64,000 nucleotides of DNA from Candidatus Woykebacteria bacterium (GCA_040876345.1 JBBDPM010000001.1:270313-334312), one strand, 5' to 3'. Numbered from the stretch's first letter, positions 25,085 to 44,198 are shown. The notes: generated from the sequence alone by a model not told the origin. Numbers and translations: made by a program.

Positions 25085-25723
25085 ATGGATGAGACTGGCC
25101 AACCGGTCCAAAACACAGCAAACCCCAACCCAAAACCCGTTTCCTGGCCGAGAGTTTTGTTAACTGTATTAATAATAGTACTGGTGGTGAGTATATTAGC
25201 CGGTGGCTATTGGTATTTTGTACTCAACAAGCCGTCAGAGACGGTCGATACCAGCCCAATCAAAGTCTCCACTCAATCTTCAAAAAAAGCAACAGAATCT
25301 TCAAAAAAAGCCACTTCTTCTGCCAAAAAAGACGAAACTGCTAACTGGAAGGTTTACGAAGAAAAACAACTTGGATTTTTAATTAAATATCCTGGGACTT
25401 GGTCGATAAAAGCTGGGACGAGCGGTAGCGTTAGAGTCGTAAAACTAAACAAAGATCGGGAATCAATTGAAATTTATGAGGATGGAGGCATAGAAGGCGG
25501 AACTGACACGACAGTAGAACTCGCTGTTGGTTCCCACAAGCTAGAGTTCTGGGTATTCGACTCAGAGACAAACAGTCAAATTACATATGTTAATAGTAGT
25601 CCGAGATTAGAATCCAGGACATCTTCGTTGCTATTATTTTACATAATTCTTGACAGAAAAACACACGATCAGAGTTTAGCAGAGGTTAAAAAGATCCTTT
25701 CAACCTTCAAACTCCTGGACTAA
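25085..25723 (+). CDS. paralog-family member 1: Pro/Gln-rich N-tail, signal-anchor TM, S/T/K-rich linker, globular domain ending ILSTFKLLD
   Basis: shares N-terminal block (VSWPR/K-TM-WYFVLNKxS-TVDTxPIKVST-KKATESSKKATSS) and C-terminal STFKFLD motif with ORFs at 35400, 42280, 43866 and decayed copy 31283-32050. Confidence 0.5.
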   Translation: MDETGQPVQNTANPNPKPVSWPRVLLTVLIIVLVVSILAGGYWYFVLNKPSETVDTSPIKVSTQSSKKATESSKKATSSAKKDETANWKVYEEKQLGFLIKYPGTWSIKAGTSGSVRVVKLNKDRESIEIYEDGGIEGGTDTTVELAVGSHKLEFWVFDSETNSQITYVNSSPRLESRTSSLLLFYIILDRKTHDQSLAEVKKILSTFKLLD

Positions 25724-25908
25724 TTCGATTTTCGATGCTAGATACTCGATGTTCGATGATCCTAAATCCTAGATCCTGAATCAAGTTCAGGATGGCAAAC
25801 GGTTGTCAATTTGCAATCCGTACCATCCTACCTTAAAATTCACTCATGGCCAAAGAGTTACGCAATATATAGTTTGTTATTGACATGTTTTGTGGTTTTT
25901 GATACAAA

Positions 25909-26178
25909 TAAGTCATAATTGAATTAAAAGAGCCAAAAGTTTATACTCCAGAGCAAGTGGCAAGGATGCTGCAGCTTTCTAAAAATACTGTTTACGATCT
26001 TATTAATCGAGGCGAAATTTTGGCAAAAAAGGTTGGGAAAGTTTACCGTATTCCCGAAAGCTCAATTTCTTTTGTTTTTACTGGTTTAGACTCCGACCTC
26101 CTTCAAGTTGAGCAAGAGGATTTGAAAAATATCGAAACTGTCAAAAAGGAAATCTCCGGCGCCCGCAGGAAATTATAG
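25909..26178 (+). CDS. excisionase/AlpA-family HTH DNA-binding protein (putative antitoxin)
   Basis: ...KVYTPEQVARMLQLSKNTVYDLINRGEILAKKVGKVYRI HTH; conserved helix-1 extends upstream of the first ATG (25957) in an open frame back to 25903, so start is probably a non-ATG codon (ATA/ATT ~25906-25911); start coordinate uncertain. Confidence 0.55.
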
Positions 26179-26186
26179 CCCCCTCC

Positions 26187-26609
26187 ATGAAAGTTTTTGT
26201 GGATTCAGACGTGGTTATCTCATCTTTACTTTCTCAATCTGGGGCAGCTTATATTTTGACCAACGCCAAAAACCTTCAACTTTTTATTTCAAATATTGCC
26301 TATCAAGAATTAAAAATTGTTACTGAAAGGTTGGGAATAGAAAAGCAAAAACTTGATGATCTTTTAAGAGAACGGTTTAAGACAGTTGAATTAGAAGAAA
26401 ATTTATCTGTAATAAAAGGAAAATATGGAAATCTTGTATTAGATCAAAATGATGCTCATATTTTGGCTGGTGCAAAAGCAGAAAGTGCAAGGTTTTTGGT
26501 TTCATATAGCACCAAACATTTTAAGGCCGAGGAAATTAAGAGAGTCTTTAATATTATTAGTTTAAAACCGGCTTTTATGCTTCAATATTTGAGGAGTTTG
26601 CAAAAATAG
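26187..26609 (+). CDS. PIN-domain protein (VapC-like toxin)
   Basis: MKVFVDSDVVISSL N-terminal acidic motif of PIN domains, 140 aa, 9 nt downstream of HTH gene. Confidence 0.6.
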   Translation: MKVFVDSDVVISSLLSQSGAAYILTNAKNLQLFISNIAYQELKIVTERLGIEKQKLDDLLRERFKTVELEENLSVIKGKYGNLVLDQNDAHILAGAKAESARFLVSYSTKHFKAEEIKRVFNIISLKPAFMLQYLRSLQK

Positions 26610-26624
26610 CTTACAATTTAACAC

Positions 26625-27941
26625 ATGGCCAAATATGTTATTGAAGGTGGGGTTCCGCTTCACGGGAGAGTGAAAATCCCTGGCGCTAAAAATGCTGGGT
26701 TTAAAATGATGATTGCTTCCCTTCTTTCGGATGACCTTTCCACCCTAACTAATATCCCCTACATACGTGACGTTATCTCTATAAGTAAAATAATTGAATC
26801 TCTAGGAGCAAAGGTAGAGCGATCTGAAGACACGGTTCAGGTTAGCGGGGGAATTAAAAATTGGGAGGTTCCAGAAGAGCTGGGTTTAAAATCTCGGGCC
26901 TCTTTTATGTACTTGCCCATACTGCTCGCTCGTTTTAAAAAGGGAAAAGTGCCCCTCCCTGTTGGAGATCAAATAGGTGAGCGACCAATCAGTTGGTTTT
27001 TGGAGGGCTTACAAAAAATGGGGGCTGAGGTTGTACTTGAAGAAAAGTTAATCGAAGTATCGGCGCCTAGTGGTCTTTCAGGGGTTAATTTCACCTTTCC
27101 AAAAAACTCGCACACCGGAACAGAAGGATTAATTATGGCAGCGTGTCTCGCTAAAGGTAACACAAGGATAGAAAATGCAGCTACCGAGCCAGAAGTTGAT
27201 GATCTAATCGCATTTTTGAATAAAATGGGTGCGAAAATTAAAAGAGTCGAGAATAAAATAATCGAAATTAATGGCATAGAATCCCTAAAAGGAGCAACCC
27301 ACTCGGTTATGCCGGATAGAAACGAGGCTGTTACATTTGGTTGCATGGCTCTTGGTACAAGAGGCGAGGTGGAAATCGAAGGGGTGAGAGTAGCCGATAT
27401 TGGATCATTTCTGAAAGAGACTAGTGAAGCAAGAGGCGTGTTCGAAAATACAGAGGGGTTACTGACGATTTCATATCAAGAAGATCTAAAACCCACTTTT
27501 ATTAAAACCACTCCTCACCCTGGATTCATGACCGATTGGCAAAGCATTTGGTGCGCTCTTATGACCCAAGCTCTGGGAGAGTCCATAATTCATGAGACAA
27601 TTTTTGAAAACAGATTTAGTTATGCGCCGTATTTACAGAAAATGGGAGCTAAAATAGAGCTTTTTGAGCCCAAAGTGGAGAACCCCGACGAATTTTATAA
27701 TTTTGAATGGAACGAAGAGTCAAAGAGATACCCTCACGCTGTAAAAGTCTTAGGTCCTACAAAACTTGCGCCAACAAAACTTGAGGTAGCCGATATACGA
27801 GCCGGTGCAACGCTTGTTTTTGCTGCTTTAATGGCCGAGGGAAAAAGCGAAATTGAAGGTGTGGAGCATATCGAAAGAGGTTATGAAGATCTTGATGGTA
27901 GGCTAGAAAATCTAGGTGCTAAAATAACAAAGGTGGATTAA
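26625..27941 (+). CDS. murA: UDP-N-acetylglucosamine 1-carboxyvinyltransferase
   Basis: EPSP-synthase fold, KIPGAKNAGFKMMIASLL, catalytic-Cys loop region. Confidence 0.9.
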   Translation: MAKYVIEGGVPLHGRVKIPGAKNAGFKMMIASLLSDDLSTLTNIPYIRDVISISKIIESLGAKVERSEDTVQVSGGIKNWEVPEELGLKSRASFMYLPILLARFKKGKVPLPVGDQIGERPISWFLEGLQKMGAEVVLEEKLIEVSAPSGLSGVNFTFPKNSHTGTEGLIMAACLAKGNTRIENAATEPEVDDLIAFLNKMGAKIKRVENKIIEINGIESLKGATHSVMPDRNEAVTFGCMALGTRGEVEIEGVRVADIGSFLKETSEARGVFENTEGLLTISYQEDLKPTFIKTTPHPGFMTDWQSIWCALMTQALGESIIHETIFENRFSYAPYLQKMGAKIELFEPKVENPDEFYNFEWNEESKRYPHAVKVLGPTKLAPTKLEVADIRAGATLVFAALMAEGKSEIEGVEHIERGYEDLDGRLENLGAKITKVD

Positions 27942-27943
27942 AT

Positions 27944-29062
27944 ATGGCAATCGAAAGGCTTGCTTGGTGTAAAATTTCAAAAAAGGCAATTGAGCACAAC
28001 ATTGGGCAGATACAAAAATTTGTCGGAAAAGATGTTGGCATAATGGCAGTGGTGAAAGGTAATGCTTATGGACATGGTGCGATAGAGGTCTCGAAGATTG
28101 CATTGGAGTCTGGAGTAAAATGCCTAGGAGTGTCGTCTTTTTACGAAGCTAAGAGACTTCGCGAATCAGGTATTAAGGATCAAATTGTAATTCTAGGTTT
28201 TACTCCAACGGAGAATTATTACGATATGGTTGAAAACGATATTACTGTAACTATTCGTAGTTTAGATGTCGCCCACTCCTTAGTGACGGCAGCAAGAAGG
28301 TTAAATAAAATTGCAAGGGTTTGGATAAAGGTTAACACTGGTCTAAACCGGCTAGGGCTTAAACCTGGAGAAGTATTGTTCTTTGCAAAGAAGCTTCAAG
28401 ATTTGCCAAACCTTGAAGTTGAAGGTATTTTTACGCATTTTGCGGGAGATGATGAAGATACAGAAGCTACCTTCACAAAGCAACAACTTCACGTGTTCAA
28501 TAAAGTTTTAGACGAACTAAAAAAGGAAAAAATTGAAATATCAATCAAATCGGCCGCAAACACAGCGGCTATTTTTTCTGTGCCAGAAAGTCATTTTGAT
28601 ATGGTTCGAGCCGGGATTGGGCTTTGGGGATTTGACACCTCAGGGTTAGGTAAAGTGAGACTTGAAAAAGCACTTACTTTCAAGACAGAAATCGTCCAAA
28701 TTACCGAAATCCAGGTGGGAGAAACAGTTGGTTACAGCCGGACTTTCAAAGCAACTAGGCCAACAACAGTAGCCACAATTGCGGTTGGCTATGCAGATGG
28801 TTTTCGCAGAGCCCCAAAAAATTGGGGTGAGGTGCTAATTGCTGGGCAAAAAGCACCTTTAGTGGGTCGTGTCTCCATGGATCAGGCTGCAGTTGACATA
28901 ACGGACCTAGAAGGTGATATTCGGCGTGGTGTAGAGGTAATTTTAGTTGGAAAAAGCAGGGATTTAGAGCTTTCAGCTGATGATGTGGCCGAGAAGCTTG
29001 GAACAAGTCCATACGAAGTTTTAACCAGTATTTCTGCAAGAGTGAGTCGATTTTATGTCTAA
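27944..29062 (+). CDS. alr: alanine racemase
   Basis: VVKGNAYGHG PLP-lysine motif; C-terminal beta domain. Confidence 0.85.
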   Translation: MAIERLAWCKISKKAIEHNIGQIQKFVGKDVGIMAVVKGNAYGHGAIEVSKIALESGVKCLGVSSFYEAKRLRESGIKDQIVILGFTPTENYYDMVENDITVTIRSLDVAHSLVTAARRLNKIARVWIKVNTGLNRLGLKPGEVLFFAKKLQDLPNLEVEGIFTHFAGDDEDTEATFTKQQLHVFNKVLDELKKEKIEISIKSAANTAAIFSVPESHFDMVRAGIGLWGFDTSGLGKVRLEKALTFKTEIVQITEIQVGETVGYSRTFKATRPTTVATIAVGYADGFRRAPKNWGEVLIAGQKAPLVGRVSMDQAAVDITDLEGDIRRGVEVILVGKSRDLELSADDVAEKLGTSPYEVLTSISARVSRFYV

Positions 29063-30080
29063 AAAATTAAAGTTGGCAATAATTTTTGGAGGAAAGAGTG
29101 GGGAGCATGAAATATCGATAGTTTCAGCTCGGTCCATCATCAAAGAAGTCGATAAGGTAAAGTACGAGGTTAAGGAAATTTTAATAACTAAAAAAGGCGG
29201 TTGGCTGGTGAGTGGTAAAGCCTGCTCTATCTCGGAAGCACTAGACGGAGTAGATGTAGCCTTTCCAGTTTTGCACGGGCCTTACGGAGAAGATGGAACT
29301 ATCCAAGGGTTGTTCGAAATTGTTGGCGTTCCTTATGTTGGCTCTGGTGTTTTAGCTTCGGCTGTAGCCATGGATAAAGCCCTTGCGAAGGATTTATTCA
29401 AAGCAAATAGCCTTCCAGTGGTAGATAGTTTTGTTGTTAAAAAGCTTCACTGGGGAAAAGAAGAAAATTCCATAGTCAATAAAATAGAGGAAAAAATTGG
29501 ATTTCCTAGCTTTGTAAAGCCTGCAAATTTAGGATCAAGCGTGGGAGTCTCAAAAGTTAAAAAGAAAGACGATCTAAACAAAGCTATTGAGGAAGCGTTT
29601 GAATATGATAACAAAGTTTTGGTTGAAAAAGCAGTCCAAAACGCCCGGGAGATTGAGGTGGCCGTGCTGGGCAATGAAAGCCCTATACCATCCGTCTGTG
29701 GGGAAATAGTCCCTTCACAAGAATTTTATTCGTATGAGGCAAAATACGTTGATGAAAGTTCGGAATTAATAATTCCGGCCAAGATCACTGAAAAATTGTC
29801 CAAAGAAATTAGAAGTTTAGCAATTATGGCTTATAAAGCGGTTGATGGGTCTGGGATGGCCAGGGTTGATTTCCTGTTTGATGATAAATCTGAGAATATA
29901 TATTTGAATGAAATTAACACAATTCCTGGATTTACCTCAATTAGCATGTACCCAAAGCTTTGGGAGAAGTCTGGGCTACCCTACCCGAAATTAATTAACA
30001 GGCTGATCCAACTTGGTATAGATAGATTCAATAGTAAAAATTCCCTGAGGGTTGACTACCCGTCTAAAATTAATCCTTAG
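29055..30080 (+). CDS. ddl: D-alanine--D-alanine ligase
   Basis: LAIIFGGKSGEHEIS, ATP-grasp, FVKPANLGSSVG, EINTIPGFT. Confidence 0.9.
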   Translation: MSKKLKLAIIFGGKSGEHEISIVSARSIIKEVDKVKYEVKEILITKKGGWLVSGKACSISEALDGVDVAFPVLHGPYGEDGTIQGLFEIVGVPYVGSGVLASAVAMDKALAKDLFKANSLPVVDSFVVKKLHWGKEENSIVNKIEEKIGFPSFVKPANLGSSVGVSKVKKKDDLNKAIEEAFEYDNKVLVEKAVQNAREIEVAVLGNESPIPSVCGEIVPSQEFYSYEAKYVDESSELIIPAKITEKLSKEIRSLAIMAYKAVDGSGMARVDFLFDDKSENIYLNEINTIPGFTSISMYPKLWEKSGLPYPKLINRLIQLGIDRFNSKNSLRVDYPSKINP

Positions 30081-31280
30081 ATGAAAATAAAAAAATTTAT
30101 TGCCCCGCCATTTCATTTTTCAAGAAGAGTTATAGCAAAACTTTGGATTATTGCTCATCCAAAAGCTACTATTATTGGTGTTACTGGAAGCTACGGCAAA
30201 ACAAATACCACTATGGCAATAGCCTATGTATTGGGGGCCAAGTTCAAAACTATAGTTACCGATGTCAATCTTGATACGCTCCACAATATTCCAATTACTA
30301 TTCTGCATCTTGGGGATCACGAGAAATTAGTTTTGGAGTATGGGGTTGATCATCCAGGGGAGATGAGTACCCATCTTTTTACAACTAAGCCAAAAGTCGC
30401 AATTGTCACTGGTATTTCTCCAGTGCATGCGGACAAAGAACATTTTGGAAGCTTGGAGAAGATTATTGCGGAGAAAGCAAAGCTTGTTTCAGCACTGCCG
30501 AGGAAAGGTTTCGCAATTCTCAACTGGGATGATCAAAATGTACGTCGTATGTCTCAAGCAACCAAGGCACAGGTTATTTTTTACGGAACAGATCCGACAA
30601 ACTGCAGCCTTTGGGCAGATAGGGTAAAGGTAAGCTTCAAAGGAACAGAGTTTTATTTGCATGTTCAAGGAGAGCAAATAAAAATTAAAACTCAATTAGT
30701 CGGCCGCCACTATATCTACAATTTAATGGCAGCAGCAGCCGTTGCACTTACCCAAAAAATGACTCTCAAGGAAATAGCATCCGCCATTGAAAATCTGAAA
30801 CCACTTCCAGGCCGGCTTAGTGTTGAGCCCGGGCCAAAAAATACAGTTATATTGAATGATTCACGCAGGGCCAATCCTGCTTCTACAATTGCTGGGCTGC
30901 AAACCCTGGATGACCTTATTGCAAAGAGAAAAATTGCGGTAATTGGGGAGATGGGGGAGTTGGGTCAGTACGATGAGGAGGGTCACAGAGAGGTTGGTAA
31001 GTTTACTAAAAATATAAAGATTGATTATTTGGTGGGAATTGGTCCCTCCACCAAATATATAATTGATGAGGCAAAGAAATCGATGAGGAAGGGAAGGGCG
31101 ATCCATACAAAAGATGTTTTTGAAGCTGCTGGAGTACTAGGAACAATTCTTCAAAAAGGGGATCTTTGGTATCTTAAGGGATCATTGCTCAAGCATGTGG
31201 AGCGGATTATTTTACTGCTTGAGGGAAAAGACGTAGATTCTGATGAGACAGCCTTCCACCGCTATGAAGTCTACCGTTGA
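30081..31280 (+). CDS. murF: UDP-MurNAc-tripeptide--D-alanyl-D-alanine ligase (MurF), lacking the usual N-terminal domain
   Basis: IGVTGSYGKTNT P-loop, Mur ligase C domain; follows ddl; 399 aa. Confidence 0.7.
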   Translation: MKIKKFIAPPFHFSRRVIAKLWIIAHPKATIIGVTGSYGKTNTTMAIAYVLGAKFKTIVTDVNLDTLHNIPITILHLGDHEKLVLEYGVDHPGEMSTHLFTTKPKVAIVTGISPVHADKEHFGSLEKIIAEKAKLVSALPRKGFAILNWDDQNVRRMSQATKAQVIFYGTDPTNCSLWADRVKVSFKGTEFYLHVQGEQIKIKTQLVGRHYIYNLMAAAAVALTQKMTLKEIASAIENLKPLPGRLSVEPGPKNTVILNDSRRANPASTIAGLQTLDDLIAKRKIAVIGEMGELGQYDEEGHREVGKFTKNIKIDYLVGIGPSTKYIIDEAKKSMRKGRAIHTKDVFEAAGVLGTILQKGDLWYLKGSLLKHVERIILLLEGKDVDSDETAFHRYEVYR

Positions 31281-31282
31281 TA

Positions 31283-32050
31283 CTAGTCGAGGAATTTGAG
31301 GGTTGATACTATGGAATCTAGAGCTGGTTCAAACTGACCCCTAACAAAATATGCTGTGAAAATGAAAACAGTAGTTTTGTTTGCTTCAATATAGATAGAT
31401 ACTGTCCTAAGTTCTTTTAAATAACCTTGATAACTTATATTTTTATAAACAGTAAAATTCCCCAGTTTCTTTGATTCCAAGTCTTCATACGACGAAGGAG
31501 GACAGCAATCTGATCTATTTGATAAGGCAAAATTTTTAAGATTATTATCACCTTTCTTTAAAACCTTGTTGATAGCAATTTTATACTATCCTTCCCTTCA
31601 ATTAATTCTCTTCCAGCAGCATTTTCTGGGTCGTAATTAGTAATATTTGCTGTAGCTTGTCTGTCATAAGCTGTTTTCCCAGACCAACTTTTTGCAGATT
31701 CAATAAACCATTTATTTGGGTACCTCAACTCAAACCCTAGAACTATATCTTTATAAGTCTTCCACCCAGTAGTCTCGTCTTTTTTGGCAGAAGGTGTGGA
31801 AGAGGGTGTAGCTTTTTTCGCGGTCGGGGTAGAGACTTTGATTGGGGTTTGGTCGACAGGTTATGTTGACTTACCTAACACAAAATACCAAAGCCCACCT
31901 CCGATTAATCCGGTAATTATAACTACAACAATTACTATAATAATTATTTTTGACCAAGAAAGTCCTTTCGAAGTCGATACAACTTGGGGAGTTGGTGTCG
32001 AAGGTTAAATCTGTGGTTGTGTTTGAACAGGATCTTCAGGCACTAATTTA
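31283..32050 (-). pseudogene. decayed copy of the STFKFLD paralog family (in-frame TAA near N-term, stop after TM, -1 frameshift mid-gene)
   Basis: minus-strand translation gives ...PEDPVQTQPQI*PSTPTPQVVSTSKGLSWSKIIIIVIVVVIITGLIGGGLWYFVLGKST*PVDQTPIKVSTPTAKKAT...WKTYKDIVLGFELRYPNKW...(frameshift)...FEPALDSIVSTLKFLD*; track ORFs 31283-31480(-) and antisense 31784-32008(+) are fragments/shadows of it. Confidence 0.55.
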
Positions 32051-32124
32051 TCAAATGTAAACTTAGTATTGTCGAGCTCGAGCGTTTGCTTGCAAGGCTG
32101 AAGAGTGATAAAATAAGCTTCAAT

Positions 32125-33159: not shown

Positions 33160-33162
33160 TTC

Positions 33163-35269: not shown

Positions 35270-35338
35270 TAGTTTAGCTTCCAACCTGCCTACCGGCAAG
35301 GCAGGGGCCTGGCCTTGGAACGTATATTTTAAATCTAT

Positions 35339-35362
35339 GTACAGTATACCAGTATACTGTAC
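35339..35362 (+). promoter_or_regulatory. perfect 10-bp inverted repeat GTACAGTATA-ccag-TATACTGTAC immediately upstream of the promoter of paralog 2
   Basis: exact palindrome seen in sequence; adjacent TTGACT (35366-35371) -35-like element. Confidence 0.3.
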
Positions 35363-35399
35363 TTTTTGACTTCGATATTACTTTTGTGGAACAATTAAA

Positions 35400-36125
35400 T
35401 TGATGGATAATCCTGTTCAGGCTAGCCAACCACAGTCAAATCAAACACCCTTAAGCCCAACTCAAGCGTCAGTAGCAAAACCAGTTTCTTGGCCAAAAAT
35501 TATTTTAACTGTTTTAGTTATTGCGATTGCTGTTGGATTATTAGGCGGTGGGCTCTGGTATTTTGTTCTAAATAAATCATCAGATACAGTTGACACAACC
35601 CCAATCAAAGTCTCTACCCCATCTGCAAAGAAAGCAACAGAATCTTCAAAAAAAGCCACCTCTTCTACCACAAAAGACGAAATATCTAATTGGGAAACTG
35701 ATGTTGAAAATTTCATGGGATTAAAGTTCAGCTTAAAGTACCCTGCTAAATTCACTATTTACAGGAGTCATAATGCAGATGCCGTTTATACGACCGACGA
35801 AGGTTCCGAGAAGTTTTATGTCGTGACAAACAGAAGTTCGCTCATAACGAATTATGAGAACGGTGATGTTAGCTTATCTGTTTATGTTGAAGATAATCCT
35901 GTCTTGGCTCAAGGGATTAAATATGTGGATGCGGAATTCGCTGGAGTGGAAGCCAAAATGGGTGAGGGAGAGAGTCAAGGCGGTGGAAAAGTAGAGTATT
36001 ACACTAACAACCAACCATCAGCCAAGGGTAAATATGTAACTTTCTCATGCCTTTTTTACCCCTCCACTGATTTAGACCTTAAGAAAATATGTGACTTGAT
36101 GGCCTCAAACTTCAAATTCCTCTGA
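35400..36125 (+). CDS. paralog-family member 2 (ends ...MASNFKFL)
   Basis: N-terminal 90 aa and underlying DNA (tcttcaaaaaaagccac(c/t)tcttct...) nearly identical to member 1; C-terminal FKFL motif. Confidence 0.5.
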   Translation: MMDNPVQASQPQSNQTPLSPTQASVAKPVSWPKIILTVLVIAIAVGLLGGGLWYFVLNKSSDTVDTTPIKVSTPSAKKATESSKKATSSTTKDEISNWETDVENFMGLKFSLKYPAKFTIYRSHNADAVYTTDEGSEKFYVVTNRSSLITNYENGDVSLSVYVEDNPVLAQGIKYVDAEFAGVEAKMGEGESQGGGKVEYYTNNQPSAKGKYVTFSCLFYPSTDLDLKKICDLMASNFKFL

Positions 36126-36297
36126 GTTTCGATCTTCGATAATCGATATTGGATCTTAGATATCATAAATCCTAAATCATACATCCCGCATCCAAAATCC
36201 AAATTGGATTAAGCTTATAACATATAGTATAATATTACTCATCCTTTAACCTGCCCACCCTTCGACTTCGCTCAGGGTCGGCACTTAATGTGCCAAG

Positions 36298-37395: not shown

Positions 37396-37411
37396 TATAT
37401 AATATCTAGTT

Positions 37412-38521
37412 ATGAAAATTGCACTTAGTGGTGGGCACCTAACTCCGGCGCTTGCCGTAATTGACGAGTTTAAAAAAATGGCTAATGTTGAGATTATTTT
37501 TATTGGTAGAGCGCGCTCAACCGAGGGGGACGTGACGCCAAGTGCAGAATCGGTTGTGATTCCAAATTTAGGAATAAAGTTTTACGCAATTTCCGCAGGT
37601 AGGCTGCAGCGCCATTTAAGTTTGTATACTATTCCAAGTATAGCAAAAGTGCCTCTGGGAGTTATTCAATCCCTTGCGATTTTGGGCAAGGAAAAGCCAG
37701 ATATCATTATTTCCTTTGGAAGCTATGTTGCCCTACCGGTGGTTTTTTCAGGTTGGATCTTAGGAATTCCAACAATTACTCACGAGCAAACACTTAAAGG
37801 AGGGCTCGCGAATAAATTTATAACAAGATTTGCTAAAAAAATTGCGCTTTCTTGGGAAGAATCAAGAAAATACTTTCCAGGGGAAAAAACGGTAGTGGTT
37901 GGTAATCCGATAAGAAAGGAAATTTTAAATCTCAAGAGAGTTAGAACAAGCCGTCCGGTAATTTTTATTACTGGAGGCAATCAGGGGGCTCACATTATAA
38001 ACGAAACAGTTGGCGATGTTTTGCCTGATTTGTTGAAAAAATATGAAGTAGTTCATCAAACTGGTGGAAGTGAAGCTTTTAAGGATTACGAAAAGCTCAA
38101 GGCAGCTTCATCAATTTTGCCCAAAAGATTTCAAAACCGATATATTATTGAAAAATGGTTTAGTTCCGAGGAGATTTCTAAAATTCTCGCCAAGACCAGT
38201 GTTCTAGTTGGAAGATCAGGAGCAAATACAGTAAGTGAGACAGCTGCTCTTGGGGTACCGGCTATTTTCATTCCTTTGCCCCATTCTGCGGGTGGTGAGC
38301 AGACTATAAACGCGCAGATTTTGGAGAATCTTCAAGCGGCTGTAATTCTTCCGCAAGAGAGATTAACACCAAAAAGACTTTTAAATTCAGTAGACCATGT
38401 TGTTAAGAATTATAATCTGTTTAAAGGTAAAGCGCGGGAGGCAAGGAAAATAATAGACCCGAAAGCCGCTAAAAAACTAGTTGAAGAAACCCTGGCAGTC
38501 GCCAAATTATATGTTAAATAG
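37412..38521 (+). CDS. murG: UDP-GlcNAc:lipid I N-acetylglucosaminyltransferase
   Basis: KIALSGGHLTPALAV N-term, GGNQGAH, GRSGANTVSE motifs. Confidence 0.85.
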   Translation: MKIALSGGHLTPALAVIDEFKKMANVEIIFIGRARSTEGDVTPSAESVVIPNLGIKFYAISAGRLQRHLSLYTIPSIAKVPLGVIQSLAILGKEKPDIIISFGSYVALPVVFSGWILGIPTITHEQTLKGGLANKFITRFAKKIALSWEESRKYFPGEKTVVVGNPIRKEILNLKRVRTSRPVIFITGGNQGAHIINETVGDVLPDLLKKYEVVHQTGGSEAFKDYEKLKAASSILPKRFQNRYIIEKWFSSEEISKILAKTSVLVGRSGANTVSETAALGVPAIFIPLPHSAGGEQTINAQILENLQAAVILPQERLTPKRLLNSVDHVVKNYNLFKGKAREARKIIDPKAAKKLVEETLAVAKLYVK

Positions 38522-39008
38522 AAGAAAGAAATTCTTAAAAAGGGGCGCGCCTCGGTTCGTCCAAATTGAGAAACCCCATACCAAAGCACGTAATAAACTA
38601 ATTTTTGTCGAGGTCTTACTCGTCTTAGTTGTTCTGGTTGGGATTGCCTACGGAGTAGTGAGAGTAACTAAGGTATCGTTACCCAATATTATTCACAACG
38701 CCTTTAGTGATGTTATCCCCAAATCTCCAATTGCAAATAGAAAAGAGGTTGTTGAGAGCAAGGCTACCCAGATTATTAAATCTTTGCCAGCCGGGCTCTT
38801 TTCTCTAAAAAAAGAATTATCAAGAACGGATGATAAATTAGTTATCAGTTCAAAGGAAGGAGTGACGGCAGTTTTTTCACTTAAAAAGGATGCTGCTTCC
38901 CAGCTTACTACTTTACAAAATCTTTTAACTAAAGCTAAAATAAATAAGAGGAAGATCGAAAAGATAGATTTTCGTTTTGATAAGTTGGTGGTCGTATACA
39001 AAAAATGA
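38511..39008 (+). CDS. FtsQ/DivIB-like small bitopic protein
   Basis: basic N-tail, one TM, short periplasmic domain; positional (murG-X-ftsA) evidence only; start set to ATG 38511. Confidence 0.4.
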   Translation: MLNRRKKFLKRGAPRFVQIEKPHTKARNKLIFVEVLLVLVVLVGIAYGVVRVTKVSLPNIIHNAFSDVIPKSPIANRKEVVESKATQIIKSLPAGLFSLKKELSRTDDKLVISSKEGVTAVFSLKKDAASQLTTLQNLLTKAKINKRKIEKIDFRFDKLVVVYKK

Positions 39009-39114
39009 CGCCCTGACCGACATAGAGTTTGGTGTGGGTGCAGCGTTTTCACATCCGATGTGTGATAAACTCAATAAGGAACTTAAAAATTAACATCCAT
39101 TGATTTAGAGACTG

Positions 39115-40431
39115 TTGGATGGAATACAATTGGGGAAAGTTGTGGCCAAAGAAAGAATAATTGTTGGAATAGACTCAGGGTCTTCAAAAATTGCAACTGT
39201 AGTCGCTAGTTTAGCTTCTGAGGGGGCACTTACGGTAATTGGTGTTTCAACTGTTGCCTCAAAGGGTATTAGAAAGGGGCAGGTGGTGGATATTGATGAG
39301 GCAGTAAGTGCGATGTCTGAGAGCCTTGAACAGGCAGAGCGGATGGCTGGTGTATCTATTGGTAGTGCCTTTGTTTCGGTTGGTGGCTCCCACATAAGTT
39401 CAGTCAATTCTCGAGGTGTGGTAGCCGTTGCCGGTGGAGAAAATGAAATTGCCGAAGAAGATGTCCAGAGAGTTACTGAAGCGGCCAGGGCAATTTCAAT
39501 TCCATCCAGCAGGGAAATAATTCATGTTATTCCCAGAGAGTTCGTGGTTGATTCTCAGGAAGGGATAAAAGATCCGGTCGGAATGACGGGTGTTCGGCTA
39601 GAAGTGGAGACTCATATCATATCTGGCGCAACAACCTCAATGAGAAACTTAGTGAAATGTATTCAGCAAGTGGGTATTGATGTGGAAGGACTGGTTTTTT
39701 CAGGGGTGGCATCTGCCGAAAGCACTCTTACCGACACCGAAAAGGAGTTGGGAGTTGCTCTAGTGGATATCGGCGGGGGCACAACTGATGTCGCCTTTTT
39801 TGTAGACGGATCAATTTCTCATTCAGTAGTAATTCCGATTGGTGGTAAAAATATAACAAATGATCTGGCAATTGGACTGCGCAGCTCTTTAGAAACAGCC
39901 GAGAAGATTAAAGTTGCTCTTAGTGACCAGTCTAAAAAAGTCTATCCCAAAGAGGAAAGTGAGGATAGCGAGAGCAAGCATGAAAGAAAAGATGATACTT
40001 TGGACCTTTCTAAAATTGGTATAACGGAAGATATTGGAACAGTGTCTAAGAAAACCTTGCTAGATGGGATCATTAAGCCCCGTCTCGTAGAAATTTTTAC
40101 CCTTATCGGTATGGAGATTAAGCGTTCTGGTTTCGCTGGACTACTGCCTGCTGGAATTGTAATAACTGGTGGCTCCGCTAAGACTTACGGTATTGAGGCT
40201 GTCGGTAAAGAAGTTCTAAGGATGCCGACCAGAGTGGCTGAGCCTTCGGGTGTGGGTGGCATAATTGATGAAATTTCATCCCCAGAATATTCAACCGCTG
40301 TTGGCCTACTTTCTTACGGCGAGAAAGTGACAGAGACGTCCTTTGGTCTCAGTCTAACAATAGGTAAGGGGTTTGCAGCTGCCAATTTGATAAAAAATTT
40401 GCTTCGTTGGCTACGCTCCTTTCTACCCTAG
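39115..40431 (+). CDS. ftsA: cell division protein FtsA
   Basis: actin-like ATPase motifs VGIDSGSSK, DIGGGTTD, C-terminal amphipathic tail. Confidence 0.9.
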   Translation: MDGIQLGKVVAKERIIVGIDSGSSKIATVVASLASEGALTVIGVSTVASKGIRKGQVVDIDEAVSAMSESLEQAERMAGVSIGSAFVSVGGSHISSVNSRGVVAVAGGENEIAEEDVQRVTEAARAISIPSSREIIHVIPREFVVDSQEGIKDPVGMTGVRLEVETHIISGATTSMRNLVKCIQQVGIDVEGLVFSGVASAESTLTDTEKELGVALVDIGGGTTDVAFFVDGSISHSVVIPIGGKNITNDLAIGLRSSLETAEKIKVALSDQSKKVYPKEESEDSESKHERKDDTLDLSKIGITEDIGTVSKKTLLDGIIKPRLVEIFTLIGMEIKRSGFAGLLPAGIVITGGSAKTYGIEAVGKEVLRMPTRVAEPSGVGGIIDEISSPEYSTAVGLLSYGEKVTETSFGLSLTIGKGFAAANLIKNLLRWLRSFLP

Positions 40432-40479
40432 ACTTAGCTTGACAAACGTAACAAATTAGTTATACTCTTTCTGCTACAT

Positions 40480-41562
40480 ATGCTGATCAAACCAGAAGTA
40501 AATCGGTTTGCCAAGATTAAAGTTATTGGAATTGGTGGTGCGGGGTGCAACGCCCTGAATTCAATGATTAGCCTCCAACAAATCCAGGGGGTTGATTTTA
40601 TTGGTGTTAATACCGATGCCCAGGCACTTCTTACTTGCCAAGCCCCAACAAAGGTTCAAATAGGAGAGCAACTTACCCGCGGTTTAGGTTCTGGAGGCGA
40701 TCCGGAGATGGGTAGAAAAGCTGCTGAAGAATCAGTGGAAAAACTCTTAGAGATAGTTGCAGATTCTGATATGGTTTTTGTTACAGCTGGTATGGGTGGT
40801 GGTACTGGCACGGGAGCATCCCCGGCTATAGCTGAAGCTGCCAGGAAAAGTGGCGCTCTCACAGTGGCGGTAGTGACAAAGCCCTTCGCTTTTGAAGGAG
40901 CTCACCGAAGGATTGTGTCAGAAGAAGGTGTCGACAACCTGAAAGACAAAGTTGACACCATGATTGTTATCCCCAACCAGAGGCTTCTTGACGTGGTAGA
41001 TAAGAAAATGAGCCTGCTAGAAGCTTTTAAAGTAGCTGATTCGGTGCTCGGTCAAGGAGTTCAAGGAATATCCGACATAATAGTAATGCCAGGGCTAATA
41101 AATGTAGATTTTGCTGATGTGCGCACTATCATGACTAATGCCGGCAGTGCTCTTATGGGTATTGGTTTTGGCTCAAGTGAAGGAAAAGCAGCGTCAGCCG
41201 CCAGAAGTGCGATCGCCTCTCCACTTCTTGAAGTTTCAATTGAAGGCGCCAAAGGAATACTCTTTAATGTTACTGGTGGGCCAGACCTTTCAATGTTTGA
41301 GGTTGATGAGGCTGCAAAAATTATCTCTTCAGCTGCAAATTCAGATGCCAATATTATTTTTGGCGCCGCTATTGATGACGCTATGGTAGATCAAGTGAAA
41401 ATTACTGTTATTGCAACAGGATTTTCCGAAGATAAACTTCGTTCAATTGAAGCAAGGGAAGCAGCTGAAGCCCTCCCGAGCATGTCTGAGGGTTCCGAAG
41501 AAGGCGAAGAAAAGAAAGAAGAAGACGAATTTGATATTCCGACATTTATGCGCCAACGCTAG
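40480..41562 (+). CDS. ftsZ: cell division GTPase FtsZ
   Basis: GIGGAGCNA, GGGTGTG tubulin signature, C-terminal DIPTFMR tail. Confidence 0.95.
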   Translation: MLIKPEVNRFAKIKVIGIGGAGCNALNSMISLQQIQGVDFIGVNTDAQALLTCQAPTKVQIGEQLTRGLGSGGDPEMGRKAAEESVEKLLEIVADSDMVFVTAGMGGGTGTGASPAIAEAARKSGALTVAVVTKPFAFEGAHRRIVSEEGVDNLKDKVDTMIVIPNQRLLDVVDKKMSLLEAFKVADSVLGQGVQGISDIIVMPGLINVDFADVRTIMTNAGSALMGIGFGSSEGKAASAARSAIASPLLEVSIEGAKGILFNVTGGPDLSMFEVDEAAKIISSAANSDANIIFGAAIDDAMVDQVKITVIATGFSEDKLRSIEAREAAEALPSMSEGSEEGEEKKEEDEFDIPTFMRQR

Positions 41563-41571
41563 GTTTCAGGT

Positions 41572-42112
41572 TCACCACCTCGCAGATACTCTCTTTTTTA
41601 ATTTTTCGTAAAAGTTTTCTCTTAGTCCAATCATTATCACAACCGCAGAGTTTAGCTTAGGATAAATCACGTAAGCTACTCTATATTGCTTACCTTGATA
41701 AGAAAAGTGGGTAGGAGCGATAAACAGAAAGGCCACCTTTTAAAGGCTCTCCAACCGACGGGTCTTCAGAAATAGTCTTTAGTGATTGTAAGACTTTGTC
41801 TTTAAATTGCTTATCTAATTTGCGAAAATCCTTTTGAGCGGCTTTTTCTAGATTGATTGAGTACATTTACACTTCTTGGAGAAGTTTTTCGATGGGAACG
41901 GTGTCTGCAAGGGGGTCTTTTTTGGTAAGTAGAGAACGAACTCTAGACTTTAATTCGTCACTAAAATCTCTGTCAGAAAGAATATCCAACCCTTCGGCTT
42001 CCTGAGGCGAAAGTTTCTTAAACCTCTCCCAAGGCACAAGAACATACGAAGGCTTACCCTACTTATCAAGGACGATTTTTGATTTTGTAGCTAGAGTTGT
42101 TTTATAAGTCAT
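41572..42112 (-). pseudogene. decayed type II toxin-antitoxin pair: antitoxin with in-frame TAG (41867-42112) plus RelE/ParE-family toxin with +1 frameshift (41572-41866)
   Basis: minus-strand translations MTYKTTLATKSKIVLDK*GKPSYVLVPWERFKKLSPQEAEGL... and MYSINLEKAAQKDFRKLDKQFKDKVLQSLKTISEDPSVGEPLKGGLSVYRSY..(shift)..GKQYRVAYVIYPKLNSAVVIMIGLRENFY (RelE/ParE core). Confidence 0.5.
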
Positions 42113-42203
42113 ACTAAAATTATAATATCATAGTATAAAATTTTAAGAAAGAACAACATTGTGTGACGCGAACAATGTATCCTGACCATATTGAAATTAA
42201 GGC

Positions 42204-42219
42204 TTGACTGGGGGGGGGG
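42204..42219 (+). repeat. TTGACT followed by G10 homopolymeric tract in promoter region of paralog 3
   Basis: gggggggggg at 42210-42219 directly abutting a -35-like hexamer. Confidence 0.6.
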
Positions 42220-42279
42220 CAGGACGAATTAAAATTAAAACAGTTGATTATTTACTAGAACTTTTTATATACTAAAACT

Positions 42280-42999
42280 ATGCCAGAGAACACTAACCAA
42301 CCAACACCAACTCAACCAGCATCACAAGGAATTAATTGGAAAAATATCCTTATTGGAGTAATTATTGGTGCAGTTCTAGTTGGTGGTGGAGGCTTTCTAG
42401 TTTACAACGCCTATCAACCCAGGAAAGAAGAGCTAATCCAAACTACCACAACTCCAACAAAAACAGCGATGCCATCTGCTTCAAAAGATAAGTCTGGTAA
42501 GTGTGATACCTATTCAAATAAGGTTGTGGGAGTAGAATTTAAATGCCCAGAGGGCTGGTTTTTTGAAGAAACTACGATACATGAAGTTAAAACAGTAGGT
42601 CTTTCAGACAAACCTTTTGACTACGAAGGTAAAGATAATATTATGATTACTATAAATACTGGAGATAATAGCAATGACGCTAAATTCAGATTCAGGGACG
42701 TGGAAGAATTAAAAATTGGTGCAACGGAGACACGCAAACCAGATTCGGATAACCCGTACACAGCAAAGACAACTAGATTGGCGGACGTCGAACTTGGTGG
42801 GGTTAAAGGTTTGCAATTTGAAGAAATTGATATTCCAGTGAGTAAGAAGGAGGATATTACACCATACAATTTATACATCTACTTTAAGCGAAACGACGAA
42901 TACGGAGACATCAGTTTAACAGTTAGAGGTGAAACTACTTATAAATCTGCAAAGGAAATACTGAAAGAAATTCTTTCAACCTTCAAATTCCTCGACTAA
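42280..42999 (+). CDS. paralog-family member 3 (ends ...ILSTFKFLD)
   Basis: Pro/Thr-rich N-tail, TM (ILIGVIIGAVLVGGGGFLVYNAY), C-terminal domain ending KEILKEILSTFKFLD. Confidence 0.5.
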   Translation: MPENTNQPTPTQPASQGINWKNILIGVIIGAVLVGGGGFLVYNAYQPRKEELIQTTTTPTKTAMPSASKDKSGKCDTYSNKVVGVEFKCPEGWFFEETTIHEVKTVGLSDKPFDYEGKDNIMITINTGDNSNDAKFRFRDVEELKIGATETRKPDSDNPYTAKTTRLADVELGGVKGLQFEEIDIPVSKKEDITPYNLYIYFKRNDEYGDISLTVRGETTYKSAKEILKEILSTFKFLD

Positions 43000-43387
43000 G
43001 CCTTTTAGTTTTGGTGCCAGTCCTGTAACTACGTTTTAGTGGGTTGACTACGTTAATGTTAAGTACTATATTAGAAATAATTAAAGTGATTTCTTAGTAT
43101 TAATTGATATAGCAAGAATAAGACGAATTAGATATTCCAGCGTTTATTCGGCAAAGATAGCCCCTATAATCTTCCTACAAGTTACTTATCTTCCAAATAA
43201 CATTAATTTAGCCTAAAAACCACGTCGCTTATCGCTTATTGCCCAACATTTTAGTAAATTTGCTTGAAAGACGTATAATAATCCATGACAACAGCGAAAC
43301 CTGTTGGTAAAAGATAGAGATCGAAATTGCGGTAGTCTTGAGGAGGCTTGCTGTCAAGCTTCCGAGCACCTGCGAGGGAGGTGACTT

Positions 43388-43642
43388 GTGTCACGCAGGA
43401 TAATCGTCATAACCGTCTCCAGGGAGTGGTGGGTGATTATTGGATTCATTCTGCTACTCATTGCCTTTCAGATAGGATGCAGCTTCCTAATCGGAAAGGT
43501 GTTTCAAGAGTTGCAGGAACCGCCGCTGGCCATACCAGTTGTGCTGGTGGTAGTAAGCCCCGCACTCACCCTCCTCTTCTACCGGCTTGCTGAAAGGAGG
43601 GCCGATATACAGATCAACCGTTGTACAGAACCCGATTTCTGA
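43388..43642 (+). CDS. hypothetical 84-aa two-TM membrane protein in a GC-rich island
   Basis: GTG start preceded by GGAGG-6nt; two clean hydrophobic helices (WWVIIGFILLLIAFQIGCSFLIG, AIPVVLVVVSPALTLLFY); TATAAT at ~43273 and hairpin leader; GC clearly above flanks. Confidence 0.35.
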   Translation: MSRRIIVITVSREWWVIIGFILLLIAFQIGCSFLIGKVFQELQEPPLAIPVVLVVVSPALTLLFYRLAERRADIQINRCTEPDF

Positions 43643-43670
43643 TCAGCGGCCCAACTAGTAGCGGTGCTAA

Positions 43671-43709
43671 GAGCGTCTTCTTGGTTGAGGACGCTCTTCT
43701 CGCTTTTGG
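43671..43709 (+). terminator. intrinsic terminator (GAGCGTC-loop-GACGCTC + T-rich tail)
   Basis: 7-bp GC-rich stem, 12-nt loop, followed by TTCTCGCTTTTGG. Confidence 0.5.
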
Positions 43710-43865
43710 ATACAGAGTTAGCCTCTAGTTAGGTCGTTGGGTTGACACTTGAGTATTTTCCAGCTATATTTTAAACAATGTCTAAAACTGCTCAAGACCC
43801 GCTTTTTTTAATTTCTTCAAGTAGTTCTGCAAGGTATGTTATCCTAAATTTCACAAGAGAGGAGG

Positions 43866-44198
43866 TTGAAAATTATGGCTGATGCACCAGTTCAGGTGCC
43901 GCAAACACCCCAAGCCCCACAAACACCACCGGTCTCACAAGTTGTTCAGGGAGGTGGTAAGGGTATATCGTGGGGAAAAGTGATACTAACCGTAGTAATT
44001 ATTGTAGTTGTAACGGCTGCTATAGCCGGGGCTTTATGGTATTTTGTATTAAACAAAACTTCGGATAGTGAAGAGTCTTTAGGTAACGTCAGAATAACCA
44101 CCCCCAAGACTACCGCTTCAACAGACTCCGCTACGAAGTCGGCGACAAAATCCGCTGAAGCTACTAAATCTGCTACAAAGTCTGCAAACAGCGAATAG
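43866..44198 (+). CDS. paralog-family member 4, truncated (110 aa: N-tail + TM + S/T/K-rich repeats KSATKSAEATKSATKSA, no globular domain)
   Basis: shares ISWGKVILTVVIIVVV...WYFVLNKTSDSEE block; strong promoter TTGACA-17-TATATT (43742-43770) and GAGGAGG SD. Confidence 0.45.
   Translation: MKIMADAPVQVPQTPQAPQTPPVSQVVQGGGKGISWGKVILTVVIIVVVTAAIAGALWYFVLNKTSDSEESLGNVRITTPKTTASTDSATKSATKSAEATKSATKSANSE

Follow-up and report, generated by a model that had tools for sequence, protein, structure and literature searches.

Proteins of Patescibacteria that match Pfam PF18933 (PsbP_2) share with the family described here the same ectodomain, the same boundary motifs and an N-terminal anchor that precedes the domain, whereas the copies analyzed here fall short of the Pfam threshold or give no match. 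No tested function for the PsbP_2 or "PsbP-related protein" family was found among the sources consulted. The best profile-to-sequence matches were PsbP/CyanoP (2xb3, 2lnj, 8z9d_P) and the PnsL subunits of chloroplast NDH, which are extrinsic, non-enzymatic binding subunits on the outer side of a membrane. The PsbP/CyanoP alignment ran from the Y..GY.F.YP.gW hairpin to the ..ivsSF.v C-terminus, but identity was 9-17%, and the present family, which is multi-copy and hypervariable, has an N-terminal helix and a long spacer as its tether. To our knowledge, CPR bacteria are not photosynthetic.

Other structural relatives are exported cell-envelope proteins: LpqN (6e5d), Apa (5zx9/5zxa) and MTC28 (4pws) of mycobacteria and DcrB (6e8a) of enterobacteria. 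The LpqN entry describes lipid binding and cell envelope biogenesis and offers the closest functional analogy to a role linked to the cell-wall/division (dcw) cluster; in their PDB titles, DcrB is an inner-membrane lipoprotein and MTC28 is a secreted antigen. LpqN and Apa are lipoproteins or secreted rather than signal-anchored. In contrast to these four proteins, the present family is signal-anchored, lacks a lipobox and does not belong to their families at the sequence level; we know of none of the four that is encoded in a dcw cluster. A further group, Tsi3 (3wa5_B), TplEi (5h7y), the Tli4-like PA3488 (7wdk_B) and Smlt3025 (6pdk), comprises Mog1/PsbP-fold immunity proteins to secreted effectors; Tsi3 was solved bound to the peptidoglycan muramidase Tse3, and PA3488 bound to PldA. 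The present family differs from them in having no adjacent cognate effector and no type VI or IV secretion context, and the similarity is at the superfamily level only.

Within the Patescibacteria, the saccharibacterium Southlakia epibionticum encodes SEML1_0245, a 220-aa hypothetical protein whose residues 66-220 are assigned in Tables S1 and S2 to an ECOD Mog1p/PsbP-like domain and which was scored as essential in three of three Tn-seq analyses (Wang et al., 2023; PMC10633639). As described there, it resembles the present family in length and domain layout, and it adjoins a histidine kinase and a response regulator and is not in the dcw cluster.

Copies of the family in the window

The window is a 64-kb stretch of a Candidatus Woykebacteria MAG that contains the dcw cluster. 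The four ORFs (M1-M4) and the decayed minus-strand copy proposed in the initial annotation were all recovered at the positions given there, five copies within 19 kb. E-values from tblastn ranged from 1e-5 to 1e-35 across the copies (M1/M2, 1e-35; M1/pseudogene, 4e-28; M2/M4, 1e-17; M3/pseudogene, 3e-10), well past chance, and by this sequence comparison they are paralogues. Neither tblastn nor a family-profile scan detected further copies in the window.

Family members begin with a short N-terminal tail rich in Pro, Gln and Thr, in most cases opening with MPE or MDE, and continue with a single transmembrane helix, a spacer of 20-40 residues rich in Ser, Thr, Pro and Lys, and a domain of ~130-170 residues. 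The hydrophobic helix is 19-27 residues long and preceded by a tail of 22-35 residues, with a net flanking charge of +1 to +2 before it and 0 to -2 after it. The earlier reading of multi-copy, single-pass, membrane-anchored proteins is supported. The C-terminal domain is predicted to be extracytoplasmic: the bias around the lone helix is weakly positive-inside, the spacer is rich in Ser, Thr and Pro, paired cysteines occur in the ectodomains of several homologues, and the bacterial structural relatives among the matches listed are mostly exported. No L-x-x-C lipobox follows the hydrophobic helix of the window's copies, which are thus not assigned as lipoproteins.

M1 (25085-25723, plus strand; 212 aa; family HMM, 5e-37) consists of a cytoplasmic tail (aa 1-23), a transmembrane helix (~aa 24-42), a Ser/Lys/Thr linker and a PsbP-like ectodomain (aa 82-212; nt 25328-25720). 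M2 (35403-36125, plus strand; 240 aa; family HMM, 1e-38) likely starts at ATG 35403 rather than at TTG 35400, which opens the ORF, and has its helix at ~aa 33-51 and its ectodomain at aa 91-240 (nt 35673-36122). M3 (42280-42999, plus strand; 239 aa) has the anchor QGINWKNILIGVIIGAVLVGGGGFLVYNAY and an ectodomain at aa 69-239 (nt 42484-42996). M4 (43875-44198, plus strand; 107 aa) likely starts at ATG 43875 behind a GAGGAGG Shine-Dalgarno sequence, the ORF opening at TTG 43866; it comprises an anchor plus a KSAT-rich tail but lacks the ectodomain, of which no remnant was found between its stop codon and pyrG. By its sequence M4 is an anchor-plus-spacer-only form, and similar short forms occur in the ftsZ..pyrG interval of L031 and after ftsZ in L011. 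The decayed copy (~32040-31283, minus strand), between murF and mraY, carries in-frame TAA codons at 32007-32005 and 31863-31861 and a single frameshift near 31560-31590.

The motif blocks reported earlier are real (SWPK-TM-WYFVLNK, PIKVST, KKATESSKKAT, W.xY..GF.xKYP..W and STFK[FL]LD), although two anchor types are present: type A in M1, M2, M4 and the pseudogene, and type B (QGINWKNILIGVIIGAV..GGGGFLVYNAY) in M3. The C-terminal ending claimed for all full-length copies holds for M1 (ILSTFKLLD) and M3 (ILSTFKFLD) but not for M2 (ASNFKFL); the pseudogene ends in IVSTLKFLD. Similarly, TCGAT and ATCCTAAATC repeats recur in the 3' flanks of both M1 and M2 (71% identity over 90 nt), as had been noted, but the 5' segments of the two genes are 78% identical over 219 nt and not near-identical over 270 nt. 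The low-complexity linker and fast-diverging ectodomain were confirmed. Ectodomains are ~28% identical within and between genomes, close to the lowest value such alignments give, and anchor identity reaches 65-81% among some paralogues; the membrane anchors are therefore the better conserved part at the sequence level.

A promoter-like site, defined by consensus match only, precedes each of M1-M4 with 9-11 of 12 matches, in line with the prediction that each copy has its own TTGAC-type promoter. The site before M1 (25047-25076, plus strand; TTGACA-18-GATAAT, 11/12) leaves 8 nt between the end of its -10 element and the ATG; as no Shine-Dalgarno sequence was found at M1, the M1 mRNA is probably leaderless. 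The -10 elements end 7 nt before ATG 35403 for M2 (35366-35395, plus strand; TTGACT-18-AACAAT, 9/12) and 6 nt before the ATG for M3 (42244-42273, plus strand; TTGATT-18-TATACT, 9/12), and on these spacings M2 and M3 are probably leaderless as well. The M4 site (43742-43770, plus strand; TTGACA-17-TATATT, 11/12) is followed by a ~100-nt leader with the GAGGAGG sequence. Downstream of M1 is a hairpin (25773-25793, plus strand; ATCCTGAA-TCAAG-TTCAGGAT), probably a terminator; the 29 nt around it are 93% identical to L003 positions 12260-12288, just downstream of the family member there. A terminator-like hairpin also follows murD (35339-35362, plus strand), ahead of the M2 promoter-like site.

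Family identity and predicted fold

The initial annotation did not recognize the family and regarded it as lineage-specific. A family profile search returned 21,699 cluster representatives at E<=1e-3, and every match with a credible source name was from CPR. Rather than lineage-specific, the family is thus very large, already catalogued and, as far as source names tell, one of CPR (Patescibacteria). NCBI labels some homologues "PsbP-related protein".

Profile and model comparisons assign the ectodomain to the Mog1p/PsbP fold as a divergent relative of PF18933. Scores of M1 (16.4 bits, E 0.0097) and M3 (18.8 bits) fell below the PF18933 gathering threshold of 27 bits; M2, M4 and the pseudogene had no PF18933 match, and M2 had no Pfam match of any kind. 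PF18933 was matched by 11 of 17 homologues (best E 9e-8), and carriers of the domain are homologous to the window's copies: P0003 aligned with M3 at E 2e-22 (32% identity over 100% of M3) and P0015 with M1 at E 1e-30 (53% identity over 61% of the length). Alignment of the window's ectodomains with PF18933-positive ectodomains by hhalign gave a probability of 99.3% and E 8e-21 over the first 37 columns only. The top match in profile searches was cyanobacterial PsbP 2xb3 (E 0.023 and 0.0018), with both boundary motifs covered.

Foldseek with predicted models, the check proposed at the outset, placed M2 and M3 in the Mog1p/PsbP superfamily. The M3 model (pLDDT >90 across most of the ectodomain) matched PsbP at 8e-7 and also CyanoP, Apa, LpqN, DcrB and Tsi3. 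The M2 AlphaFold model (pLDDT 78) matched Tsi3, PnsL, MTC28, CyanoP and LpqN, with Tsi3 as the top PDB match (TM-score 0.61, normalized to target length). The superfamily is marked by an antiparallel beta-sheet packed on helices, including a C-terminal helix, and by significant structural matches to PsbP, Mog1 and DcrB, and the predicted structures fit this description. PsbP proper, the photosystem II extrinsic subunit, was rejected as an identity for a protein of a Candidatus Woykebacteria MAG: PF01789 was matched weakly by three of 17 homologues (best E 0.0093) and does not figure among the matches to Pfam listed for copies in the window. No photosystem genes occurred in the portions of the window that were read.

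The C-terminal motif had been put forward as a possible sorting or anchoring signal. In the M3 model the C-terminus is formed by a helix (218-233) and a strand (236-237), and ILSTFKFLD covers the end of the domain's final helix together with its final strand; KDETADWKTY..GFS.KYP..W corresponds to the first beta-hairpin, the other structural edge of the domain. More than one motif was present in 21 of 256 homologues, and tandem-domain relatives have ...ILSTFKF(I/L)E-KDETADWKTY... at every domain junction. After the motif come 0-2 residues (for example LD, L or LE) and no hydrophobic segment. Because it lies inside the folded domain, is internal in tandem proteins and lacks a hydrophobic tail, the motif does not act as a sorting or targeting signal. 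The LPXTG sortase, PEP-CTERM exosortase and GlyGly-CTERM rhombosortase types were likewise rejected, since the motif also occurs internally and has no hydrophobic helix with a basic tail.

Positions in the dcw cluster

The copies had been described as each sitting alone between cell-wall genes, but a toxin-antitoxin pair comes after M1, and M3 and M4 both lie between ftsZ and pyrG. In the window, the copies have as neighbors pyrG, genes of the mur and fts sets, and toxin-antitoxin pairs of type II (HTH_17 with PIN_3; ParE-like). One intact and one decayed toxin-antitoxin module share gaps with family members, so these gaps accept accessory genes.

Members lie in the same gaps (MurB|MurA, MurF|MraY, MurD|FtsW and FtsZ..PyrG) in relatives that share 49-90% identity with the window in their dcw proteins. 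Members occupy dcw slots in L003, L004, L005, L011, L021, L022, L026, L030, L031 and L033, and the same slots as in the window are filled in L004 (three slots), L003, L005, L026 and L031. L004 has an intact member in the MurF|MraY slot of the pseudogene, in the same opposite-strand orientation. The shared gaps indicate that the arrangement is old and that the copies are not recent insertions, contrary to the first description of them as inserted and recently duplicated. By their distribution, the genes appear to be long-standing residents of specific dcw gaps in Woykebacteria and relatives. Occupancy of the same cell-wall/division gaps across several related genomes is new here; literature reports of dcw linkage, two anchor types or leaderless promoters for this family were not found.

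Among the sampled long contigs, which are skewed towards relatives of dcw-embedded copies, a member was inside the dcw cluster in four of 12 and outside in eight of 12, often beside toxin-antitoxin modules. As most sampled members lie outside the cluster, the linkage may reflect tolerated insertion sites at operon boundaries and not function.

Proposed role and alternatives

We consider it probable that these proteins are paralogues of a large CPR PsbP-like family, resident in dcw gaps, that serve as tethered binding modules. The most likely role is that of a membrane-tethered extracytoplasmic binding module in the cell envelope. The helix would tether the domain to the membrane, the spacer would position it within the wall zone or slightly outside, and the variable sheet face and loops may bind a partner such as a protein, an envelope lipid or an envelope precursor, with different paralogues specific for different partners. 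The process served may be peptidoglycan synthesis, remodeling or division, as the conserved dcw linkage suggests. Against this reading, individual copies are dispensable, given that one in the window has decayed and M4 has no domain.

Less probable is that the proteins are variable surface adhesins or host-interaction proteins, with the spacer carrying the domain through the wall and selection by hosts or partners driving ectodomain divergence. The contrast between divergent ectodomains and conserved anchors, the multi-copy genes with tandem arrays and the Ser/Thr-rich spacers are consistent with such a role, as is the account of all cultivated Patescibacteria as episymbionts given in PMC12206443. 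However, nothing ties the proteins to a host, the small lone domain lacks the repeats or stalk usually seen in adhesins, and dcw slots conserved across genomes would not be predicted.

We regard as improbable a role as immunity-like inhibitors, each paralogue binding and neutralizing its own target among enzymes that degrade wall or membrane, whether autolysins or effectors of the cell itself or foreign enzymes, as Tsi3, TplEi, Tli4 and Smlt3025 do. Tsi3 led the PDB matches of M2, and the family is multi-copy, variable, predicted to be extracytoplasmic and membrane-tethered, and found within a peptidoglycan gene cluster, with members often next to toxin-antitoxin modules. Nonetheless, no effector-like gene (hydrolase or lipase) adjoins any copy in the window, PADLOC yielded nothing meaningful, and the structural matches are superfamily-level (10-14% identity) in a fold put to other uses too: lipid binding in LpqN, sensing in PknH and scaffolding in PsbP.

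That the copies are lineage-specific accessory genes, lately inserted or duplicated and bearing a sorting signal at the C-terminus, is very improbable and largely refuted, since the clustering of five copies, the M1/M2 similarity and the accompanying toxin-antitoxin modules are set against filled slots in five relatives, a motif that is internal in tandem-domain proteins and lacks a hydrophobic tail, and no family member found in viral contigs.

Family copies in the dcw cluster of the window

The dcw cluster of the window is complete and contains, in order, mraZ, rsmH, an ftsL-like gene, ftsI, murE, an NTP-transferase gene, murC, murB, murA, alr, ddl, murF, mraY, a pgeF-like gene, murD, ftsW, murG, ftsQ, ftsA and ftsZ, followed by pyrG. 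Five elements of one protein family were detected in its gaps: M1 (25085-25723) between murB and murA, a decayed copy on the minus strand (approximately 32040-31283) between murF and mraY, M2 (35400/35403-36125) between murD and ftsW, and M3 (42280-42999) and M4 (43866/43875-44198) between ftsZ and pyrG. The five elements matched each other with E-values of 1e-35 to 1e-5 in tblastn searches, and neither tblastn nor the family profile detected further copies in the 64 kb. Exact database matches were to a Candidatus Woykebacteria MAG (locus tags WD231_01800 and WD231_01895). Decay of the minus-strand copy shows in two in-frame TAA stops and a single frameshift; an alternative genetic code was rejected because the stops are TAA and the adjoining genes use all three stop codons normally.

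The repeated genes reported in the initial annotation are real, and all of the shared motifs it described were found in the window copies. Its description of the architecture held in part. M1 and M2, said to be nearly identical, share 78% identity over 219 nt, the anchor of M3 differs from the one thought common to all members, and M4 lacks the globular domain ascribed to every ORF. Its interpretation of the family as novel, recently inserted and equipped with a sorting signal did not survive.

Fold, extent and architecture of the family

The PsbP_2 domain (PF18933) matched M1 and M3 below the Pfam threshold (E = 0.0097 and 0.0018, respectively), is borne by database homologues of the window copies at E-values of 1e-22 to 1e-31, and was matched in 11 of 17 aligned family members. 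The ectodomain profile retrieved 233 proteins, several of which are named "PsbP-related protein" by NCBI and originate from Woykebacteria, Berkelbacteria or an unclassified bacterium; Gottesmanbacteria was among the other named matches. The top PDB match of the family profiles was cyanobacterial PsbP (2xb3), aligned from the first hairpin through the C-terminal motif. AlphaFold models of M3 (ectodomain pLDDT mostly greater than 90) and M2 (mean pLDDT of 78) were compared with the PDB by Foldseek. The M3 model matched PsbP (8e-7) and then PnsL, CyanoP, Apa, MTC28, LpqN, DcrB, Tsi3, EagT6/SciW and Mog1p, and the M2 model matched the same set with Tsi3 at the top. The predicted fold of the ectodomain is Mog1p/PsbP-like and the family is a divergent branch around PF18933. 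Matches in NCBIfam, PADLOC and PHROGs were all weak and ran through transmembrane or low-complexity parts, the best being the SAG1386/EF1546 surface protein at 24 bits vs. a cutoff of 80 bits. Replacement of W...Y by C...C (disulfide) in the first hairpin was seen in M3, the homologous protein P0006 and one copy in the related contig L004, yet a regular expression found it in 1 of 213 sequences, and it was set aside as anecdotal.

An exhaustive profile search detected 21,699 cluster representatives (50% clustering) at E ≤ 1e-3 and 3,603 at E ≤ 1e-10, many of them with two to six domains. Reliable-looking source names were all CPR, and two non-CPR labels, a "Cloacimonetes" bin and OZ246414.1, look mis-assigned. 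OZ246414.1 (915 kb; the source of L003, L013, L014 and L018) is titled "uncultured Gammaproteobacteria" and its FtsZ is 90% identical to that of the window; it looks mislabelled because its dcw proteins share 58-90% identity with the products of the window's Woykebacteria genes. At least seven family copies were present in the four stretches fetched from it. A scan of viral contigs found no family member. The fold and the family are already catalogued (Pfam PF18933, NCBI "PsbP-related protein", ECOD "Mog1p/PsbP-like"), and with this many representatives the idea of a novel, lineage-specific family was not borne out. A large part of bacterial diversity belongs to the CPR, whose membrane proteins mostly lack an assigned role; by its number of representatives and its copy number in the fetched parts of one genome, the family is one of the large CPR expansions.

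The conserved C-terminal motif had been proposed as a sorting or anchoring signal. The pattern ST[FL][KR][FL] occurred in 191 of 256 homologues and lay at most three residues from the end in 161 of these, usually followed by LD or L; no hydrophobic tail follows it. In the M3 model, the C-terminal helix (218-233) closes with the residues AKEILKEILS, and KF makes up a last short strand. The pattern occurred more than once in 21 of the 256 homologues, and the junction sequence in these tandem-domain proteins was ...ILSTFKF(I/L)E-KDETADWKTY.... Because both conserved blocks recur at internal junctions and no hydrophobic tail is present, they mark the two ends, C- and N-terminal, of a domain that can be repeated, which effectively refutes a sorting function. 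A processing site at KDETAD, particular to the spacer-domain junction, was dropped as well since the motif is found at internal junctions too, in 24 of 54 later domains, and KDETAD is more likely structural. Annotation thereby loses a false lead and gains simple boundary motifs for calling the domain.

Two anchor types were found, both across genomes. Type A (SW.K(I/V)ILTV...WYFVLNK...PIKVST) is carried by M1, M2, M4 and the pseudogene, and type B (QGINWKNILIGVIIGAV..GGGGFLVYNAYQPKKEE) by M3. Mean identity within a genome was 43% for anchors (several pairs at 65-81%) and 28% for ectodomains; between genomes it was 30.5 and 28%, respectively. Maximum identity of anchors was 81% in the same genome and 69% in different genomes, and that of ectodomains was 39-43%. 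Such a pattern could have come from 5' gene conversion or paralogue recombination, or else the ectodomain may have diverged strongly. P0010, a metagenomic protein of 249 amino acids, has a type-B anchor nearly identical to that of M3 and a C-terminal region with neither boundary motif, which suggests that the anchor is a reusable cassette. M4 matched most closely, at 51%, the anchor of a full-length copy in L003. Anchor-only proteins of 91-94 amino acids with the same KSAT-rich tails as M4 were detected in the ftsZ-pyrG interval of L031 and after ftsZ in L011, and no ectodomain remnant was detected downstream of M4; for these reasons M4 may be a short form that is tolerated, not one truncated recently.

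Conserved dcw positions and possible role

The genomes of relatives were scanned using an alignment of 13 sequences. L004 (JACZRW01), whose FtsZ is 87% identical to that of the window, has members between MurB and MurA, between MurF and MraY (opposite strand, intact) and between MurD and FtsW, and these correspond to the three slots that the window has upstream of ftsA-ftsZ. L003 (OZ246414) has one between MurD and FtsW and three between FtsZ and PyrG, one of these frameshifted, and L005, another Woykebacteria MAG, has one between MurB and MurA. For L026 and L011, the occupied positions are MurD-FtsW (two members) and the stretch after FtsZ (one full copy plus short forms). L031 has members between MurA and Alr and between FtsW and MurD and short forms between FtsZ and PyrG, and L033 has one after FtsZ. 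Other members lie between MraY and MurD in L022 (Saccharibacteria), before FtsA and between FtsA and FtsZ in L021, and after FtsI as a tandem array of four in L030. The dcw gaps that hold members are conserved across relatives, and the occurrence of relatives' members in the same gaps effectively refutes a recent insertion. Same-slot counterparts differ in ectodomain type, and the type found in M2 occurs after FtsZ in L033. In the literature searched (PsbP in Patescibacteria/Saccharibacteria, PF18933, dcw in CPR), the association with dcw was not described, and no report was found of the dcw embedding, the two anchor types, the contrast between anchor and ectodomain, or leaderless promoters.

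Twelve additional homologues were picked solely for their long contigs. Of these, four are in the dcw cluster, which is far above chance if the cluster makes up about 2-3% of a CPR genome, with the sample skewed towards relatives of the dcw copies and the cases non-independent. One of the 12 adjoins ftsK and a RodZ-like gene, two are a few kilobases from a class A PBP, and several adjoin toxin-antitoxin pairs. In the window, toxin-antitoxin modules gather in the same dcw gaps as the family members. A pair on the plus strand (25957-26609), HTH_17 (E = 3e-10) followed by PIN_3 (E = 5e-8), lies between M1 and murA, and a decayed module on the minus strand (41572-42037) lies between ftsZ and M3. 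The ParE-like toxin gene of the latter (41572-41866) is split by a frameshift into ORFs of 58 and 54 amino acids (PF15781, E = 2e-6 and 7e-7), and the 56-aa ORF upstream of it had no Pfam match. Because toxin-antitoxin modules accumulate in these gaps, it is a live alternative that the gaps are sites that tolerate extra genes, as opposed to reflecting a functional link.

Members of this large paralogous family combine a single-pass anchor, a spacer and a PsbP/Mog1-fold domain, and they repeatedly occupy conserved dcw slots. The ectodomain probably sits outside the membrane and would be a non-enzymatic binding module. Other proteins with this fold are known to bind partners or lipids; they include PsbP, which binds photosystem II, LpqN of mycobacterial envelope biogenesis, and Tsi3 and TplEi, which bind effectors. 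The conserved position among mur and fts genes favors a function in synthesis or remodelling of the wall or in division, in which paralogues would differ in partner. Only tentatively can the dcw-embedded members be cast as CPR-specific accessory ectoproteins of the peptidoglycan-synthesis and division machinery. On this view the transmembrane anchor, which is relatively well conserved, would attach to a partner in the membrane, e.g., MraY, FtsW or a PBP, and outside the membrane the hypervariable PsbP-like domain would bind wall enzymes or hold them back. Such a role, if true, would explain why members have stayed in the same dcw gaps across Woykebacteria, Saccharibacteria-like and Parcubacteria-like genomes, and would fit with an essential protein of similar build in Southlakia. 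Table S2 of PMC10633639 assigns ECOD "Mog1p/PsbP-like" to two Southlakia proteins, and one of these, SEML1_0245, similar to the family in size and layout, was scored essential (PMC10633639). That the ectodomain serves surface adhesion or host interaction, as the initial annotation read it, is doubtful, and that it acts in immunity-like inhibition of lytic enzymes is improbable. A binding-scaffold fold in repeated, fixed dcw gaps turns "hypothetical membrane proteins" into a testable hypothesis on how ultrasmall cells build or protect their wall, with the conserved dcw linkage as its testable point.

Tandem arrays of four to seven family genes were also seen in other CPR (L030, 9986-12838; L032, 8804-15936; L016, 7800-19270). 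The L030 array directly follows ftsI with overlapping stop and start codons (TAATG), and in L032 nucleotidyltransferase/HEPN and AbiEii modules are interspersed among the copies, in the vicinity of ftsK and a RodZ-like gene. A second short single-pass ORF, absent from the window, directly follows ftsZ in L031 (4185-4541, minus strand) and L011 (2694-3005, plus strand). The two products are 56% identical, with an N-terminal PPLIQDPE..TPKPV, one helix and a coiled-coil-like QNLEQRVAELEN segment, and are reminiscent of FtsB/DivIC-type proteins.

Expression signals and flanking elements

Expression signals were judged by consensus match only. For M1, M2, M3 and the majority of the relatives examined, 6-8 nt separate the end of a -10 hexamer from the ATG, no Shine-Dalgarno sequence is present, and a good -35 element is often found. 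The predicted promoter sites in the window are at 25047-25085, 35366-35403 and 42244-42280, and the same layout was seen in L003, L004, L013, L018, L023, L031, L032, and L033. The proximity of the -10 hexamer to the ATG and the lack of a Shine-Dalgarno sequence imply that M1-M3 and most relatives have putatively leaderless mRNAs. An MPE or MP[DE] start was present in 93 of the 256 homologues. M4, unlike M1-M3, has a leader that contains GAGGAGG.

Short TCGAT and ATCCTAAATC repeats follow family genes in the window (25724-25800 and 36126-36200). A hairpin, ATCCTGAA(N5)TTCAGGAT, also follows family genes, and the surrounding 29 nt are 93% identical between the window and L003 (12260-12288). A GC-rich stretch on the plus strand (43296-43705), visibly above the background of about 40%, has an MFE of -157 kcal/mol (z = -3.8 vs. 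shuffles) and closes with the strongest terminator-like hairpin of the region (43669-43698). The stretch contains "ACAGAACCCGA", but RNase P RNA was rejected since Rfam gave no match at E ≤ 1; DNA-level conservation was absent in L003. Within it, an 84-aa ORF (43388-43642) has two hydrophobic stretches and no Pfam match. The stretch could be a new small RNA or encode a small membrane protein.
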